Virus record (IMG/VR): IMGVR_UViG_3300030376_006203
Location: 64,001-128,000 of that record
Strand: one strand, 5' to 3'
Origin: a virus
Lineage: Duplodnaviria > Caudoviricetes
DNA length: 64,000 bases
Positions within the stretch are counted from its first letter, which is position 1, and every line of letters starts with the position of its first letter. This document shows, piece by piece, positions 13,691-30,046 of this stretch. The position numbers and the translations under genes were made by a program. The notes under the pieces were generated by a model. The model did no database searches. It was given only the letters and a program-made list of their open reading frames with translations, and had not been told where the DNA came from.

Positions 13691-14400
13691 TTCCAGTTCT
13701 CCTTACACCAAGGGTCTTGGCAAGTTTTAGGTTGTGGGTCTCCGTGAAATACAGCAATTGATGTTTGAGGGTGTATCTTTGGTACACCAGGAGATATAAA
13801 ATCTTTAACACCATCTTTGTTTCGTACCATAGGTGGTTTGCCTCTCATTTCCCATTTGTAACTCATTACCCATTCATCGGGCCAAAAATTAAAATCATTT
13901 TTCACTTGAGCATACAACCAATCTTGGTCTCCATGGAATCTACGCACAGGTGCCGCAGGATTTTTTATGAAGTCTCTGTAAATTTGTGGGTGTTGTCCTA
14001 TGTTCCATCTCACCACACTGCTGTTGAATCTATTCCATTTAGGATTATTACATCTATTAAAGTCTCTTATCACACAAAACTCATTTGGTTTGTATGTAAA
14101 AAGTCTGTCAATACTTCTAAAAACAATCACATCAAGATCCATATATAAAATTGTACCTTGCGGATCTTCCAAAGGTAAACTGGGATTGAATAATAAAGGT
14201 TTATGCCACCAACCATTGACACCATAACTTTGAGGTATTGGCATCACTCTCACTGTGCTGTTTAATCCTTTAGGGTCTTCTGTAAAACAAACAAATTCAA
14301 ATGGAAGTGTGCAGTATCTACGCACCATCTGTTCCAGTGTATTCACATACTCTGGACCATACTTGTTACCCCATTTTAAACAAACAATGTAATTGATCAT
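13687..14400 (-). CDS. GT-A fold glycosyltransferase
   Basis: CLKWGNKYGPEYVN, WWHKP, DLD (DxD), NSSV, GDQDW and FHG.P.P motifs. Confidence 0.8.
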   Translation of the reverse strand: MINYIVCLKWGNKYGPEYVNTLEQMVRRYCTLPFEFVCFTEDPKGLNSTVRVMPIPQSYGVNGWWHKPLLFNPSLPLEDPQGTILYMDLDVIVFRSIDRLFTYKPNEFCVIRDFNRCNNPKWNRFNSSVVRWNIGQHPQIYRDFIKNPAAPVRRFHGDQDWLYAQVKNDFNFWPDEWVMSYKWEMRGKPPMVRNKDGVKDFISPGVPKIHPQTSIAVFHGDPQPKTCQDPWCKENWK

Positions 14401-14849
14401 TATCCTTCATAGATTGCTGAATTGGCTCCATGCTCAGCACATTCAACTTTCACTACATAACAACGATTGTCTGTTGCTTCACGTATAAGTTTGTCTGCAA
14501 AGTTAAAGGCGTGTTCCGCAAATTTTTCTGCTCCAACTCCATCAAACATTCTGATGTCTGCCAAGTCAAGTGCTTCAAGTTCTTTAAATTTTTCTAAATG
14601 TGGATCATTAACATCTAAACAAAGTTTGTGATCAAATGAATCTGTCAGCCATGCCTTAAGAGGTTTCAATCCTCCAAAGTCCACTGCCCAGTTTTTGTTG
14701 TCTAATTTATCACAACCAAATGTAAATGTAAATGCTAGACTGTATCCATGTAAAAAATGACAATGCGAATGATCTGCGTTAGGTTGTCTGAACACTGCTG
14801 ATAAGCCAATGTTGTGTCCATAATGTTTTGTACTATAATGTTTGCTCAT
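14400..14849 (-). CDS. queD: 6-carboxy-5,6,7,8-tetrahydropterin synthase (QueD/PTPS)
   Basis: HCHFLHGY, VDFGGLK, FDHK and EHGANSA motifs. Confidence 0.88.
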   Translation of the reverse strand: MSKHYSTKHYGHNIGLSAVFRQPNADHSHCHFLHGYSLAFTFTFGCDKLDNKNWAVDFGGLKPLKAWLTDSFDHKLCLDVNDPHLEKFKELEALDLADIRMFDGVGAEKFAEHAFNFADKLIREATDNRCYVVKVECAEHGANSAIYEG

Positions 14850-14912
14850 ATTTTTCTCCTGTTGTAACGGCGGAGTATTTAAAGAGGGTCGACGTTGTTA
14901 AAGTCCTCATTG
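14850..14912 (-). promoter_or_regulatory. structured 5' leader of queD (candidate pseudoknot riboswitch)
   Basis: GAGG/CCTC stem; loop AACGTCG complementary to downstream CGCCGTT; directly followed by AGGAG RBS. Confidence 0.45.
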
Positions 14913-14913
14913 T

Positions 14914-15507
14914 TTAAATTATAATGTTTTTTTCCAAGTCTGTCAATGGAATAATTTTTAAATTTGGTATTTTCTTCCATTCTTCTGGTATAGGAAAGTT
15001 TTCTTCAACATAATAATTAAATGTGTGTTTGTCATAATGTTCAAATATTTTTTGATTTTGATATATCCAATAACTAGGATCAACTTGCCTTTTTGAACTG
15101 ACATCGTAAGATTTGGTATTTTTGTACACATTGTTCACATATCCTTCTATGCCAAATAAATCAAATCCAACAATATGAATTAATTCTGTAGCAGAATATT
15201 TAACAGCCACCAATAAAGCAAATTGCCCAGTTCCCCAATGCCAAGGATCATCTTGTCTTAATTTCCCTACATAAGGCACATCAGGCACAGGAAACACACC
15301 AAAGTCTTCATTCCAATCATGTCTTGTGTACACACAACTCTGTTGAGTGTTTGAATGATTTATTGCTTCACGCACCATTCTTTTGTCGCAACACACTAAA
15401 TGGTCAACTTTTCTATCTCTAAAAATGGCGTTACAGCCGACAGTTGGCAGTTTGTATGAATCTATATCTAAATCTATTCGACTCTCACCATTTCCAATTA
15501 CTAACAT
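14914..15507 (-). CDS. conserved phage protein, MptE/MAF_flag10-like Rossmann fold
   Basis: VIGNGESR, GCNAIFRD, DHLVCCD, WGTG and IVGFD motifs. Confidence 0.55.
   Translation of the reverse strand: MLVIGNGESRIDLDIDSYKLPTVGCNAIFRDRKVDHLVCCDKRMVREAINHSNTQQSCVYTRHDWNEDFGVFPVPDVPYVGKLRQDDPWHWGTGQFALLVAVKYSATELIHIVGFDLFGIEGYVNNVYKNTKSYDVSSKRQVDPSYWIYQNQKIFEHYDKHTFNYYVEENFPIPEEWKKIPNLKIIPLTDLEKNIII
14918..14946 (-). promoter_or_regulatory. sigma70-type promoter for queD, inside the 3' end of the upstream gene
   Basis: TTGACA-17 nt-TATAAT exact consensus. Confidence 0.75.
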
Positions 15508-15523
15508 ATTAAATACCTTTATA

Positions 15524-15961
15524 ATGAACAGTTCTATTTACACAGATGTGGTCGAGTGGATGGCTAAAATTGTAAAACCACAAAAAGCATTAGGCAACAT
15601 ATCTATTTGTCCATATGCTAAAAAGGCGTCATGGGCCATCGTTGAATGTGAAAATATGAAGATAGATGTAGAACAATGTCACCAAGAGGTCACTATTTTC
15701 GTGTTACCAAAATCTATGAGCAAAGCCAAACTTGAATCTTATGCTTTAGATTTAAAAAAGAAATATCCTACATTTGTATTCTTACCTGATCATAAACAGG
15801 CAAATACTAAACTTAAAAATGTATCTACAGGCAATGGCAAACACAATTTATTATTAGTTCAACGTAGAAAAAAATTAGATGGTGCTAGAAAGAATCTTGC
15901 TAAAGGCAAATACTATGATAATATGTCTGAAGATTACAAAAAGAAATTGTTCAGTTATTAA
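15524..15961 (+). CDS. hypothetical protein (DUF1415-like CPYA motif)
   Basis: ICPYAKKA; ATG at 15524 is 8 nt after TAAATA. Confidence 0.55.
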   Translation: MNSSIYTDVVEWMAKIVKPQKALGNISICPYAKKASWAIVECENMKIDVEQCHQEVTIFVLPKSMSKAKLESYALDLKKKYPTFVFLPDHKQANTKLKNVSTGNGKHNLLLVQRRKKLDGARKNLAKGKYYDNMSEDYKKKLFSY

Positions 15962-23653: not shown

Positions 23654-23683
23654 AAAAAAAAAGGCGACCGAAGCCGCCTTTTT
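23654..23683. terminator. intrinsic terminator, possibly bidirectional
   Basis: A9-GGCG(A)C-CGAA-G(C)CGCC-T5 hairpin flanked by A and T runs. Confidence 0.8.
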
Positions 23684-23705
23684 AATCTAGTTAAAAACTA
23701 TACAA

Positions 23706-23969
23706 TTATAATTGTACACCTTTTGCTAATGCTTTGTATCCAAGACCTACTACCATTCTAGGTGCTTTACCTGTTCTGTATACTTTAACACCAGTTCTTT
23801 TGTTAGTGTTTAAGAACACAGGTAAACCTTTGAATCTTAATGCTTGAATTACTGCACCTGGGTTACCAGCACCAAATCTATTTTTAATAGCATTTGATGT
23901 TAATGCTTCACCGTTTAATAAAGCATTTTCTACTCTTTTTTGTATAGTCATAGTTTTAGTTTTAGCCAT
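23706..23969 (-). CDS. small helix-turn-helix DNA-binding protein
   Basis: ALLNGEALT...RFGAGNPGAVIQALR.KG..V.LN...YR.G pattern; start uncertain (23969 or 24053). Confidence 0.6.
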   Translation of the reverse strand: MAKTKTMTIQKRVENALLNGEALTSNAIKNRFGAGNPGAVIQALRFKGLPVFLNTNKRTGVKVYRTGKAPRMVVGLGYKALAKGVQL

Positions 23970-24108
23970 TGAGCTAACTCCTCTTCTGATTTTTGTCTTC
24001 TTCTGGACAGTATTCGTACCAGTCGAAAACATATTTTTTATTATGTCTAACATTAATATTAATATACATTCTTTTAAGGAAATAGTCAATAAGGTAGGTT
24101 TACCAAAA

Positions 24109-24702
24109 TTAGCCAAAAATACTCATGTCACAATCTAACACTGTGGCAACCAAGTGTACTCTGTCTTCTTCACCACCGTTGAAAGCATTATGGTACTTGG
24201 TATTGTCGGTAATCCATACACCACCATCTGCAGGCATATGATGAACTTCAGTATCGATACACATACGAGCACCAAAATTTGTAACAATTGGTATGTGGAG
24301 TCTAGGTTCTGGATCTCTATGCCAACTCAAAGTTGTTCTTGGCAGTTTCCAAAGCAACCTAATCCTACCAAGTTTATACTTTTTGGTAAGTGCTTCGTAC
24401 ATCTCTTTGAAATATGTGTCTTTGAATAGCGAAACAAATTCTGAATATTGTGCTTCGTCTATCACTTCTTCTCTTTGAACTTCTTGATAAGTGCTGTCTG
24501 GTTTAGTCCAGTACAGTCCTCTTACATTACCACCTGTGATTGAATTTGGATCATTTGGTATTTGTGTAAGGCAGATAGCATTTATATCTCTTTCACCTAA
24601 CGGCGACTGTCTTGCTACTCTTGAATCAACTTCTGCTAATGCTGACTGCATTTTGGCAACATCGAATTTTAATGTTGGATCTCTGTAAAATCCTTTTGGC
24701 AT
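24109..24702 (-). CDS. aspartyl/asparaginyl beta-hydroxylase-like 2OG oxygenase
   Basis: GRIRL, LSWHRD (HxD), RLHIPIVTN, H.AFNGG..DRVHLV. Confidence 0.8.
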   Translation of the reverse strand: MPKGFYRDPTLKFDVAKMQSALAEVDSRVARQSPLGERDINAICLTQIPNDPNSITGGNVRGLYWTKPDSTYQEVQREEVIDEAQYSEFVSLFKDTYFKEMYEALTKKYKLGRIRLLWKLPRTTLSWHRDPEPRLHIPIVTNFGARMCIDTEVHHMPADGGVWITDNTKYHNAFNGGEEDRVHLVATVLDCDMSIFG

Positions 24703-24703
24703 A

Positions 24704-26080
24704 TTAATCTCCGAATTTGATACCTTGTGCTAAAGGTAATGATTTTCCATAATTAATTGTGACTGTGCTTCTACGCATATATTGTTTCCAAGCATCAGAA
24801 CCAGACTCACGTCCGCCACCTGTGTCTTTCTCACCACCAAATGCTCCACCAATTTCTGCTCCACTAGGACCAATATTAATATTAACAATACCACAATCTG
24901 AACCAACTGCTGATGTAAATGTTTCTGCTTCTTGAACGTTGTCAGTAAAAATACACGAACTTAATCCTTGTGGCACTGCGTTATGAATATCAATTGCTTC
25001 ATCTAAATCTTGATATTTCATAGTGTAAAGTATTGGAGCAAATGTTTCAGTCTTAACCAAATCACATTGTTCTGTTGCTTCTACTATTGCAGGACGAACT
25101 GTACAACCTTCTACAACTTCACCACCATGAACTGTGTAACCTTTTGCTTTAGCCTGCTCTAATACCGAAAGCATTCTATCTGCTGACTCTTGGTTGATTA
25201 GCGGTCCTACCAAAGTTTCTTCTTTAAAGTTATCTCCCACTGGTAAACTTGAATAAGCAGACTTTAATTTTTCTAACAACACATCATATACAGATGTATG
25301 TACAATTAATCTTCTCAATGTGGTACATCTTTGTCCTGCTGTACCAACCGCACCAAACACAATACCTCTTACTGCTAAATCAATATTGGCGTGTTTGGAT
25401 ACAATCATACCATTGTTTCCACCTAGTTCATATAAACCTTTACCCATTCTTGCCGAAACTCTTGGAGCCAATGCTTTACCCATTGCTGTCGAACCTGTAG
25501 CACTTAACAAATTGATTCGTGAATCATCTGCCATCCATTCTGCTTCAGTTTTATCTCCGTCAACTACCTGTAATAAATCTTTAAATTTTGTATCAGGAAA
25601 GAAGCATTCGCTGATTGCTTTGTCCCATGCCTCTTTACAACTGTCTGTTACATTTTTTGCTTTGGGTGAACCTTTCCATACCACACTGTTTCCACATACC
25701 ATCGCTATACAATGATTCCATGCCCAAACGGCACAAGGAAAATTAAAGGCAGTAATTACACCTACAACACCTAATGGATTGTAAACTTCCTGTAATTTGT
25801 GTTCTGGTCTTTCACTCTGTATTGTTAATCCGTATAATTGTCTTGAAAGTCCTACTGCGAAATCACACATATCAATTGCTTCTTGTACTTCACCAATTGC
25901 TTCTGCGTGTATCTTTTTTGCGTCTTTCATAATGGCTGTACCAATCTTTTCAATGTCTTGTCTTAAATGATTGCCAAACACTCTGATAACTTCACCTCTT
26001 TTAGGTGCTGGTACAGTTCGCCATTCTTTTTGAATTGATTTTGCTCTTTCTATTATGCTGTCGTAATTATTTTTATTCAT
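24704..26080 (-). CDS. pcd: ALDH7/Pcd-family piperideine-6-carboxylate (aminoadipate semialdehyde) dehydrogenase
   Basis: PAPKRGE, GEVQE.ID.CDFAVGLSRQLYG, ITAFNFP, ELGGNN, GTAGQRCTT, ETFAPILY and GAEIGGAFGGEK.TGGGRESGSDAWKQY; start at 26080 overlaps the upstream stop. Confidence 0.92.
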   Translation of the reverse strand: MNKNNYDSIIERAKSIQKEWRTVPAPKRGEVIRVFGNHLRQDIEKIGTAIMKDAKKIHAEAIGEVQEAIDMCDFAVGLSRQLYGLTIQSERPEHKLQEVYNPLGVVGVITAFNFPCAVWAWNHCIAMVCGNSVVWKGSPKAKNVTDSCKEAWDKAISECFFPDTKFKDLLQVVDGDKTEAEWMADDSRINLLSATGSTAMGKALAPRVSARMGKGLYELGGNNGMIVSKHANIDLAVRGIVFGAVGTAGQRCTTLRRLIVHTSVYDVLLEKLKSAYSSLPVGDNFKEETLVGPLINQESADRMLSVLEQAKAKGYTVHGGEVVEGCTVRPAIVEATEQCDLVKTETFAPILYTMKYQDLDEAIDIHNAVPQGLSSCIFTDNVQEAETFTSAVGSDCGIVNINIGPSGAEIGGAFGGEKDTGGGRESGSDAWKQYMRRSTVTINYGKSLPLAQGIKFGD

Positions 26081-27098
26081 ATAGTTTCCCAAATTTATTG
26101 CTTGTAAATATTTCCAATGGAACATCTTCTTGTTTTTGAAATCCACTGCCAGATAATTTGCCTTCTGTGTAGGCTTGTACAACCGCACATACACCAGAAG
26201 CCGTTGTTCTTTGAATAGCATTCAAAGTTTTATCTCCGTATATTTTCTTTTGAAAAGTTCTTTCTTGTAATTTGCCATCTATCACGCCAATCACAGTAAT
26301 AAACATAACCACAACGTCTTTGGTTGTGTATGGGACTTCCTGATCAAACAAATCAATAAATTTTAATTTGTTGTGTTTTAGATTAAGGTCTTCTAATAAA
26401 AACTTCATATTAGAATGATGTCCAGGATATCTAATAGTCTTATAACTCATTGTCTTAACTTTGTCAGCAAATGTTTCACACATTGAAGCAACTCCGCCTG
26501 AAGTGTTGAATGCTTCATATTTGTTTCCATCTATGAATAAATGTTCCAATCCATCCAATGGTTGAACTTTAATCGCTTTGCCGTTTGAAATAACATCTAC
26601 ATCATTAATATATTCATTGATTAGACCTGAAGTTGACCATGTCAAATAATATGCCATACTGTTGGCTGTGTACATAGGCAACGCACCTACTCTCATTTTC
26701 ACTTTGTCTACTCTACTGAATTGTTTTATAAGATCCGATGCTATAATATTAACTGCTCCAGGAGCCAATCCACATTGTGGCATCATGAATGCTTCTGTTT
26801 TTAATCCTTTGATATGATCCGACACTGCGACATCTTCTGTAAGGTCAAAGTATGCTACATCATTTTCGGCACAGGCATCTGCTATTGATATATTAGCATC
26901 ATAAGAAGCACAACTAACAACTATGTCTTTGTCTTTAATAAACTCAGACAATGCGTGGTCATCATTGGCATCTATATGAATTGCATTTTGAATTTCGGTA
27001 TTTGAATCAACTAAAAAAACTTCATGCTTTTCTAATTTTAAGAAAGCACTTACTATACGTCCGATTTTTCCTGCTCCTACTACAACAATTTTTTTCAT
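26073..27098 (-). CDS. saccharopine dehydrogenase-family enzyme, most like lysine 6-dehydrogenase
   Basis: GAGKIG Rossmann motif, YFDLTEDV, PQCGLAPG, RVGALP, TWST.GLINEY, EAFNTSGG, YKTIRYPGH and AIQRTTA. Confidence 0.88.
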   Translation of the reverse strand: MKKIVVVGAGKIGRIVSAFLKLEKHEVFLVDSNTEIQNAIHIDANDDHALSEFIKDKDIVVSCASYDANISIADACAENDVAYFDLTEDVAVSDHIKGLKTEAFMMPQCGLAPGAVNIIASDLIKQFSRVDKVKMRVGALPMYTANSMAYYLTWSTSGLINEYINDVDVISNGKAIKVQPLDGLEHLFIDGNKYEAFNTSGGVASMCETFADKVKTMSYKTIRYPGHHSNMKFLLEDLNLKHNKLKFIDLFDQEVPYTTKDVVVMFITVIGVIDGKLQERTFQKKIYGDKTLNAIQRTTASGVCAVVQAYTEGKLSGSGFQKQEDVPLEIFTSNKFGKLYE

Positions 27099-27101
27099 AA
27101 T

Positions 27102-27338
27102 TTATCTTCCTGTTTTACTTACAAATTTCTGTGGACCTTCAGTTATAAATTCGAGTCCGCTCATATTACCAATATAAACATTTTTTTCAATATTGTATTG
27201 TAATTGTAATTTAACTGTTTTTTGAAACACCACACTTAAGAACTGATTCTCTTTGAACGTGAGGATATTTGCTTCTACCTTTTGTCCATTTCTAGTGCAT
27301 TCAATAATACAATTATCATCGAAATGTATCGTTTCCAT
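27102..27338 (-). CDS. hypothetical protein
   Basis: Start METIHF after AAGGA RBS; YIGNMSGLEF motif. Confidence 0.55.
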   Translation of the reverse strand: METIHFDDNCIIECTRNGQKVEANILTFKENQFLSVVFQKTVKLQLQYNIEKNVYIGNMSGLEFITEGPQKFVSKTGR

Positions 27339-27546
27339 CGTCATCCTTATTTTTATTTTTAAGTTGTTGAACTCTTTTGTAACTGATATAATAAATGAAA
27401 TCAACCCAAAGGACATTCATAAAATATCCTAGTAATGTCAGTCTCAATCCAAATAGGAAAGGTAACAAAAATATTGCCACCCACATAAAAAACAAATAGT
27501 GACTTATTCTTTCACCTGGCACTGACCAATACAGCCATTCATTCAT
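27316..27546 (-). CDS. small membrane protein
   Basis: Two hydrophobic segments. Confidence 0.55.
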   Translation of the reverse strand: MNEWLYWSVPGERISHYLFFMWVAIFLLPFLFGLRLTLLGYFMNVLWVDFIYYISYKRVQQLKNKNKDDDGNDTFR

Positions 27547-29347: not shown

Positions 29348-30046
29348 CTATTTTTTGATTTTGGGAAATAAGGCGTCTGTACAGAAAAGTTCAACGTCTT
29401 CTTCTTTAAGTCCTAATGACTTCATTACCCTTGGAGTATGCGGATTTTGTTGTTGATTATGGCAATAGTAATTCTGTGCTTGAATGGTTTCTTCTTCATT
29501 TGCTGTGTTTTTGTAATCACCAATGGAATCAAAATAAACTTTTAAATTGGCTAATGCCATTTCCACAATGGCTTTGGATTCTTCTTCACTGCTGACATTT
29601 CCTGCCGCAACCATTGAACCACTGAATATGTTTAATGCCCATTGCGGTAATTCTCTTTTCTTACTAGGTACAAATTCTTCTACTGCTTCTTTAAACCAAT
29701 CTATCAAAGGATGTTCTTCGCCACCAGAACTTTTTGAAAAGTCATGAAAGGCTCCTGTCATTTTGTTTTTACCTGCTATAACATCAAATCCATATATAGG
29801 ACCGTTGTTATCCAAATTAGGAAAAATACACACGTGCATCATCCATAAACCTTTAGACTCTCTAGCATCTACCACATCTATATGGCAACGTCTACAATCT
29901 TCTGTTTGCCATACTCTATTAATCCAACCGTTATCAGGTTGATTAAATTGTGCCATGCCTTCTTCTTGAATTTCTTTACCTCTAGAATCAAATTCTTTTA
30001 TGATTTGTTCTTTACAGTCTATTAGTGTGTCCCAAATGATGCTCAT
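29348..30046 (-). CDS. pcyX: ferredoxin-dependent bilin reductase, PcyX/PcyA-type
   Basis: RRCHIDVVDAR..KGLWMMHVC, PIYGFDVIAG, AFHDFS, RELP.WA..IFS and QNYYC..Q.QNPHTPRVM. Confidence 0.85.
   Translation of the reverse strand: MSIIWDTLIDCKEQIIKEFDSRGKEIQEEGMAQFNQPDNGWINRVWQTEDCRRCHIDVVDARESKGLWMMHVCIFPNLDNNGPIYGFDVIAGKNKMTGAFHDFSKSSGGEEHPLIDWFKEAVEEFVPSKKRELPQWALNIFSGSMVAAGNVSSEEESKAIVEMALANLKVYFDSIGDYKNTANEEETIQAQNYYCHNQQQNPHTPRVMKSLGLKEEDVELFCTDALFPKIKK

Follow-up and report, generated by a model that had tools for sequence, protein, structure and literature searches.

A predicted lysine-to-aminoadipate dehydrogenase pair beside an AspH-like hydroxylase in large marine phages

The metabolic genes known from marine phages serve mostly photosynthesis, nucleotides, phosphate and sulfur. 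A 64,000-nt stretch of phage DNA (here called the window; bases 64001-128000 of the 148-kb IMG/VR viral record IMGVR_UViG_3300030376_006203, CheckV completeness 41%) carries three packed genes that suggest something else, encoding a lysine dehydrogenase (LysDH)-like protein, an aldehyde dehydrogenase (ALDH) of the ALDH7 family with a short N-terminus and a small hydroxylase resembling AspH (Table 1). The locus raises the question of whether a phage, a large uncultured marine relative of the pelagimyophages with a genome of probably >300 kb, carries a lysine-oxidizing pathway, where it obtained it and whether the hydroxylase is part of it. An earlier note on this DNA had described three tightly coupled genes with an 8-nt overlap followed by a 1-nt gap, and we confirmed the coordinates and both junctions: the stop of the LysDH-like gene and the start of the ALDH gene share 8 nt (ATGAATAA), and TAAtATG spans the ALDH stop and the hydroxylase start.

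We read the locus, with moderate confidence, as a bacterial-derived auxiliary pair that turns lysine into 2-aminoadipate, co-transcribed with a hydroxylase that most likely acts on a substrate of its own. The two dehydrogenases would be transcribed together and expressed during infection. The LysDH-type enzyme would oxidatively deaminate the epsilon-amino group of L-lysine to give 2-aminoadipate semialdehyde (AASA), NH4+ and NADH; the semialdehyde would be in equilibrium with piperideine-6-carboxylate (P6C), and the short ALDH7 would oxidize it to L-2-aminoadipate, forming another NAD(P)H. In sum, nitrogen and reducing power would be taken out of lysine, or aminoadipate would build up, in the infected cell. 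The pair would have been acquired from bacteria with the same operon, SAR86 being the nearest cellular clade for the ALDH, and would have entered the phage genome in a single insertion, immediately upstream of an AspH-like oxygenase that was already a core phage gene. The analysis establishes the integrity of the genes, their family and fold, their synteny, the purifying selection on them and their phylogeny; substrates, products and physiological purpose are what we infer for the pair, whose families catalyze the route from lysine through AASA/P6C to 2-aminoadipate.

Results

A short-form ALDH7 shared with SAR86

Judged by its sequence, the ALDH gene is best read as an ALDH7, that is, a 2-aminoadipate-semialdehyde (P6C) dehydrogenase. 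The protein matches Pfam Aldedh at 7e-112 and scores 690.4 bits with the NCBIfam model NF050084 (pip_6_carb_DH; cut-off 730), the next family reaching 244 bits. Its matches in the PDB to 6dbb, the Pcd structure 6rtr and ALDH7A1 have E values of 1e-162 to 1e-128, and it is about 50-60% identical over 450 residues to ALDH7A1/antiquitin and bacterial Pcd (4x0t, 2jg7, 6rtr and 6dbb). In alignments with 6dbb, 6rtr and 2jg7 the motifs AFNFP, ELGGNN, QRCTT, GEVQE and the C-terminal PLAQGIKF are all kept. On the basis of the ALDH7A1 structures, we take these to include the catalytic Cys, the Glu and the oxyanion-hole Asn as well as the aminoadipate-binding residues (the equivalents of E121 and R301, and the C-terminal crook), so that the catalytic residues, the Glu/Arg pair and the PLAQGIKF crook would all be shared with ALDH7A1 and Pcd.

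Aligned with the solved ALDH7/Pcd chains (506-525 aa), the protein begins only at about their residue 56-61, and ~50 N-terminal residues are missing, which bears out the earlier remark that the ALDH is without its first few dozen residues. In the ALDH fold this stretch holds the N-terminal helix and the first beta-hairpin, both of which, unlike ALDH7A1 and Pcd, the phage protein would do without. An upstream in-frame extension (a 505-aa frame that overlaps the LysDH-like gene) contains no ALDH-like N-terminal sequence. The short N-terminus is found in all phages with the trio and in SAR86, whereas the remaining bacterial ALDH7s of the set all carry the ~50-residue extension. Because the short form is common to all of these phages and SAR86, the truncation is an old, selected, clade-wide feature and not a defect of one phage. 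An AlphaFold2 (AF2) model of the short ALDH7, built from a 12-row alignment, had a pLDDT of 72.5 with the C-terminal 60 residues below 50 and was not used.

A lysine 6-dehydrogenase-like enzyme

The first gene is best read as an L-lysine 6-dehydrogenase-type enzyme (EC 1.4.1.18) with a saccharopine-dehydrogenase fold, as predicted from sequence matches and a structural model. Pfam identifies Sacchrp_dh_C (PF16653) at 5e-21 and Sacchrp_dh_NADP (PF03435) at 3e-9; like the family matches of the other two genes, these are far beyond chance. The top PDB sequence match in phmmer is 3abi, the L-lysine dehydrogenase PH1688 of Pyrococcus horikoshii, at an E value of 2e-22, compared with only 1.7e-4 for yeast saccharopine dehydrogenase (2axq). 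An AF2 model of the protein (pLDDT 88.6) has 3abi as its best fold match in Foldseek (E value 2e-25, TM scores of 0.80/0.78), end to end on both structures, followed by 2axq, 8deb and 5l78 at about 1e-18 with lengths of 400-450 aa. Saccharopine reductases, carboxy(nor)spermidine dehydrogenase (CASDH) and homospermidine synthase have fold E values no better than 1e-18 and exceed the phage protein by 50-130 residues. The Rossmann motif G8-x-G10-x-x-G13 is followed by Asp31 at the end of beta-2, and G8, G10, G13 and D31 are invariant in 14 homologues; from what is generally known of Rossmann folds, a site of this type would fit a preference for NAD. PH1688 (Yoneda et al. 2010, cited in PMC10413350) shares the NAD-type motif, the two-domain fold and the size (349 versus 341 aa), but the identity is only 24-30% (24% in the fold alignment).

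CASDH was considered as a candidate and rejected. The residues His228-Glu229-Glu230 are central to CASDH and absent from LysDH (PMC10413350); this His-Glu-Glu motif was not found in the phage protein, as read from the sequence and not from a superposition, and the neighboring gene encodes an ALDH7, not a decarboxylase.

The low identity to a characterized LysDH, together with the fact that no NCBIfam model reaches its cut-off on the protein, leaves room for other substrates: the first enzyme could act on another amine of the opine, saccharopine or polyamine type, and the ALDH7 on other aldehydes, or on betaine aldehyde to give glycine betaine. ALDH7 enzymes accept betaine aldehyde and lipid aldehydes too, and several phage lineages have the LysDH-like gene beside a family-B DNA polymerase (PolB) gene with no ALDH within 5 kb. 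We nevertheless regard such substrates as improbable, given that 3abi is ahead of saccharopine reductase and CASDH by about 7 orders of magnitude and matches in length, that neither the His-Glu-Glu motif nor a neighboring decarboxylase is seen, that the aminoadipate-binding residues of the ALDH7 are conserved and that pairing of an ALDH7 with a LysDH-like gene is widespread in bacteria.

The same pair in bacteria

Of the 80 bacterial loci that match the LysDH-like family best, 48 carry an ALDH7 gene inside the 5-kb flank, mostly directly adjacent, in bacteria of many phyla, among them Microvirga, Phenylobacterium, Planctomycetes, Myxococcota and many Gammaproteobacteria. The earlier assignment of the two genes to a LysDH-like enzyme and a P6C dehydrogenase is supported by family, fold and bacterial pairing. 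In the marine bacterium Ruegeria (Silicibacter) pomeroyi, SPO0234/SPO0235 have experiment-based annotations as lysine dehydrogenase and AASA dehydrogenase and serve aminoadipate production under high salt (Neshich et al. 2013, as summarized in PMC4334477). This lysdh-aasadh pair resembles that of the phage in its adjacent genes, its route from lysine through AASA/P6C to 2-aminoadipate and its marine setting; it differs in being cellular and in having no hydroxylase attached. A YFDLTEDV motif is common to the LysDH-like phage protein and PDB 3ic5 ('putative saccharopine dehydrogenase', R. pomeroyi), which is presumably the N-terminal domain of the R. pomeroyi LysDH. The alphaproteobacterial relatives that were sampled differ from the phage in having a full-length ALDH7 (about 500 aa) and LysDH-type proteins that are only about 42% identical to that of the window.

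The nearest cellular relatives among species genomes are found in SAR86, with identities of 53% for the LysDH and 55% for the ALDH. As in the phage, the SAR86 operon combines a short ALDH7 without the ~50 N-terminal residues and a compact LysDH-like protein of 335 aa, but it is chromosomal, has the ALDH before the LysDH and includes no hydroxylase. In the ALDH trees the SAR86 and phage short forms are sisters (SH-aLRT 100 in one tree and 91 in another); immediately outside this pair lie full-length ALDH7s from other jumbo phages, and ordinary bacteria are more distant. In the LysDH tree, phages, SAR86 and a few other groups form a set that is internally unresolved but well separated (98). Compositional pull is possible for the ALDH sisterhood, given that both are AT-rich, but the truncation common to the two does not depend on the tree columns.

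In SAR86 genomes the ALDH7-LysDH operon is also directly preceded, with an overlap, by the gene of a multi-pass membrane protein of 166 aa (L067:3139-3639; same site in L062-L064, L068 and L069). The protein matches no Pfam family and has no homologue in phages, and its reading frame was rejected as a split-off ALDH N-terminus on the grounds that it encodes a membrane protein without a phage match; it may be a transporter for the pathway.

Conservation in phages and metagenomes

The earlier note had made synteny in other phages, surveyed in viral contigs, one test of the proposal, and the trio passed it: the three genes occur in the same order in 20 viral-contig loci, where identity to the window falls from 95 to 62% for the LysDH-like protein and from 95 to 57% for the ALDH, and in >20 further metagenome loci. 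On both sides the trio is flanked by phage genes, encoding an ATP-dependent DNA ligase, a clamp-loader-like PHROG and a ClpP/prohead-protease-like protein, and the phage flanks recur in many independent viral contigs. Nearby is a match to ribosomal protein S21 of pelagiphage HTVC008M. The GC content is flat across the trio region at about 0.32-0.37. Pairwise dN/dS is 0.03-0.33 for all three genes, these values being rough given that dS is often near saturation. The marks of a phage auxiliary metabolic gene (AMG) are thus present, namely a viral record, phage flanks, retention in related viruses and selection.

In four loci (L017-L020) the cassette is a mosaic, with an ALDH 85-93% identical to that of the window and a LysDH-like gene only 68% identical, which implies that cassette variants have recombined at the 8-nt overlap or close to it.

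In the metatranscriptomes, contigs identical to the window extend over the genes and across the two junctions. They come from two runs whose samples are shared with DNA runs, and they weakly suggest that the trio genes are transcribed, DNA carry-over being possible in RNA contigs; contig depth in the RNA runs is unable to rank the genes.

The hydroxylase predates the dehydrogenase insertion

The third gene encodes an AspH-like 2-oxoglutarate (2OG)/Fe(II) oxygenase whose pathway is probably separate from that of the dehydrogenase pair. It matches Pfam Asp_Arg_Hydrox (PF05118) at 2.5e-9 (37.6 bits versus a cut-off of 22.6), and its top PDB match in phmmer is the beta-hydroxylase Cpz10 (7v4f, E value 1e-16). 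The HRD, H and RVH of the window protein pair with the HRD, H and RIH of Cpz10, which puts the iron triad and the 2OG-binding Arg in register. With this HxD...H...R, the Rossmann motif of the first gene and the ALDH7 alignments, the claim that the catalytic motifs of the trio are intact was borne out. Cpz10 is a small-molecule beta-hydroxylase of caprazamycin biosynthesis (7v4f, PMC9814697) that acts on a nucleoside-antibiotic intermediate.

An Asp/Asn beta-hydroxylase is among the proteins core to all pelagimyophages (PMC7029224), and the window protein is 54% identical to the Asp_Arg_Hydrox protein of Pelagibacter phage Mosig (Mosig_00118). Mosig_00118 and Cpz10 are, like it, small AspH-like 2OG oxygenases (about 180-200 aa) with the HxD...H and Arg aligned. 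In Mosig the gene adjoins a phosphate-transporter gene with no dehydrogenase near, whereas the copy in the window sits behind the ALDH. The hydroxylase search yielded 30 viral loci, in which several distinct lineages, including a complete 328-kb phage, have no ALDH upstream; two hydroxylase-bearing records of 235 and 158 kb have neither dehydrogenase. In a hydroxylase tree rooted on Mosig, the lineages without ALDH are basal and the ALDH-linked ones form one derived group (support 89). Because the hydroxylase is core to pelagimyophages and stands without an ALDH in the basal lineages, it predates the dehydrogenase insertion, and one insertion upstream of a resident hydroxylase explains the trio. 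Hence, the earlier view of a three-gene operon serving one pathway is not supported as it stands, given that the AspH-like gene is core to pelagimyophages and ALDH-less in Mosig and in the complete 328-kb phage.

Probable export of the ALDH and hydroxylase to bacteria

A database search with the ALDH returned a large set of 460-aa proteins, 74-78% identical, that carry SAR324/Deltaproteobacteria metagenome-assembled genome (MAG) labels from several independent submitters. Metagenome contigs 89-93% identical to the protein from this search (L145, L146 and L160) have a GC content of 0.47-0.48, count as SAR324 by the labels of near-identical NCBI MAG proteins and represent one conserved chromosomal site, with ordinary bacterial neighbors on both strands that include a glycoside hydrolase, an EamA transporter, a kinase, an enzyme of the dihydrodipicolinate synthase (DHDPS) family, an aminotransferase and an ABC ATPase. 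In these bacterial contigs the short ALDH is directly followed by the hydroxylase (75-80% identical), and there is no LysDH-like gene upstream. The SAR324-type copies are nested inside the phage group in both the ALDH tree and the hydroxylase tree, and a phage-only clade without them is rejected by an approximately unbiased (AU) test (p 0.0006; the grouping was chosen with the tree already in view). The simplest reading is that the ALDH and the hydroxylase passed from a phage of this lineage to SAR324-type bacteria.

These labels bear on whether the trio is phage DNA at all. IMG/VR records can include host DNA, and with close ALDH homologues labeled as SAR324 MAGs the trio could be bacterial DNA that assembly or binning had wrongly placed in a viral record, or else a passenger in decay. 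We consider this extremely unlikely: phage genes lie on both sides of the trio and the flanks recur in independent viral contigs, GC is flat at about 0.35, purifying selection is strong, and the nesting of the SAR324-type copies inside the phage clade is backed by the AU test against the alternative.

Joint transfer also bears on the role of the hydroxylase, and a functional link to the ALDH may exist, given that both moved together into SAR324-labeled bacteria. On this account the ALDH and the hydroxylase, or the whole trio, would act on one lysine-derived metabolite to make a modified amino acid (a signal, osmolyte or inhibitor), for example by hydroxylation of lysine, pipecolate or aminoadipate. 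The two genes are adjacent in every phage locus that has a short ALDH and a hydroxylase, with gaps of 1-50 nt, they are intact and adjacent in the SAR324-labeled contigs, and Cpz10, the solved protein closest to the hydroxylase, hydroxylates a small molecule that resembles an amino acid rather than a protein substrate. Adjacency can however be explained by one insertion and descent, and joint transfer of neighboring genes requires no functional link; the hydroxylase is core to pelagimyophages and ALDH-less in Mosig, in the complete 328-kb phage and in several other basal lineages, and SAR86 has the dehydrogenase pair without it. Overall, we regard one shared pathway as unlikely. In a related and slightly less likely version, the short ALDH7 and the AspH-like oxygenase would be a phage-evolved unit that makes or removes a lysine-derived metabolite (which may be, for example, hydroxylated aminoadipate or pipecolate) and was valuable enough to be exported to free-living SAR324-type bacteria, the LysDH being one of several feeders.

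Other arrangements in large phages

The LysDH-like gene of a different group of phages overlaps with the beginning of the PolB gene, and a Clp ATPase and flavodoxin are found nearby. The complete 328-kb phage, a member of this group with terminal repeats, has its LysDH-like gene by PolB, a full-length ALDH7 by ClpP at a distance of about 250 kb, and the hydroxylase in yet another place. That both dehydrogenases are present there, unlinked and with an ALDH of other ancestry, argues for selection on the two-step pathway.

Other host-like genes stand beside markers of the trio in related large marine phages (L039:2373-3611, L251:2204-3253, and L174:7968-8336 and 13730-15622): an indoleamine 2,3-dioxygenase beside the LysDH-like gene in one contig, a glutamine-synthetase-like gene adjoining the hydroxylase in another, and ribosomal protein L7/L12, DnaK, SufBD and ClpX near the ALDH in one contig. 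An unrelated uncultured phage of 636 kb (LR756504.1; locus L009) encodes a full-length ALDH7 (504 aa, 53% identical) and has no LysDH-like gene in its vicinity; the placement of this ALDH7 among bacterial sequences suggests that it was acquired separately.

Neighboring features of the window

The coordinates of the locus are collected in Table 1. A small conserved open reading frame (ORF) of 104 aa, whose counterparts in the related viral and metagenome loci are 47-93% identical, has no match in Pfam or PHROG; given that it ends only 3 nt from the LysDH-like start, the packed run of genes is longer than the trio. The promoter-like site may mark the end of the trio unit and the start of the next gene, although the consensus scan for promoters and terminators found no more sites than expected from shuffled sequence.

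Table 1 Features of the locus in the window
Feature	Position	Strand	Length and remarks
LysDH-like gene (gene 1)	26073-27098	minus	341 aa
Short ALDH7 (gene 2)	24704-26080	minus	458 aa from ATG at 26080
AspH-like oxygenase (gene 3)	24109-24702	minus	197 aa
Small conserved ORF	27102-27416	minus	104 aa; 3 nt upstream of LysDH-like start
Promoter-like site TTGACT-17-TATATT	24061-24089	minus	just past hydroxylase stop; consensus scan only, weak

The small gene downstream of the hydroxylase (23673-24045, PHROG 4973) has an RNA contig depth 5-8x that of the operon contigs, with flat DNA depth; this phage gene may be strongly expressed and have the promoter-like site at 24089-24061 as its own. Elsewhere in the window, positions 29348-30046 match a PHROG 'ferredoxin oxidoreductase' AMG, and outside it the same phage record encodes a 5-aminolevulinate (ALA) synthase (TIGR01821, 544 bits; G000:C1:133484-134521, locus L255:1480-2670, minus strand). 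The two together suggest tetrapyrrole or bilin metabolism, which PMC11480375 discusses for aquatic phages.

Discussion

Several points weigh against a lysine-to-aminoadipate pair. The ALDH is 40 bits under the equivalog cut-off of NF050084, a shortfall that may be partly due to the missing N-terminus (the match begins at model position 17 of 475), and the ~50 residues it is without are present in every solved ALDH7. The solved LysDH is only 24-30% identical to the phage protein, and the lysine activity of the 340-aa phage/SAR86 LysDH-like clade is predicted. A 242-kb record (55% complete) has the ALDH and the hydroxylase but no LysDH-like gene, and SAR324-labeled bacteria took the same two genes without the LysDH; the ALDH is thus not strictly dependent on a phage LysDH. 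No aminoadipate-processing enzyme was found in the 148-kb record, which has no PF00202 transaminase and no pyrroline-5-carboxylate (P5C) reductase, its sole PF00155 enzyme being the unrelated ALA synthase; with the record ~41% complete, this absence means little.

The purpose of the pair, whether nitrogen, reductant or aminoadipate itself, is purely what we infer. We favor a role in freeing nitrogen and reductant from lysine in the infected cell, as hinted by the repeated occurrence of Clp protease genes near the ALDH and by the glutamine-synthetase-like gene beside the hydroxylase in one relative. Alternatively, aminoadipate could serve as an osmolyte or a glutamate analogue.

The enzymes and the bacterial operon are already known. 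A literature search for LysDH, saccharopine dehydrogenase or aminoadipate AMGs in phages or viruses found no relevant paper, nor one treating the pair as a phage AMG, in agreement with the earlier impression that it is not a standard one. To this the analysis adds four points: a short ALDH7 that runs through the whole phage clade and SAR86, a hydroxylase that is independent of the dehydrogenases and was there before them, the probable export from phage to SAR324 and the dispersed arrangement in a complete genome. The natural truncation offers a ready test of the role of the N-terminal segment in a medically studied enzyme family. The ALDH phylogeny, with a short form shared with SAR86 and an export to SAR324, gives a rare directional signal and may help host assignment for this uncultured phage group. 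If our reading is true, a conserved and expressed lysine-oxidizing pair in abundant large ocean phages would add the scavenging of amino-acid nitrogen and reductant to the list of phage AMGs.

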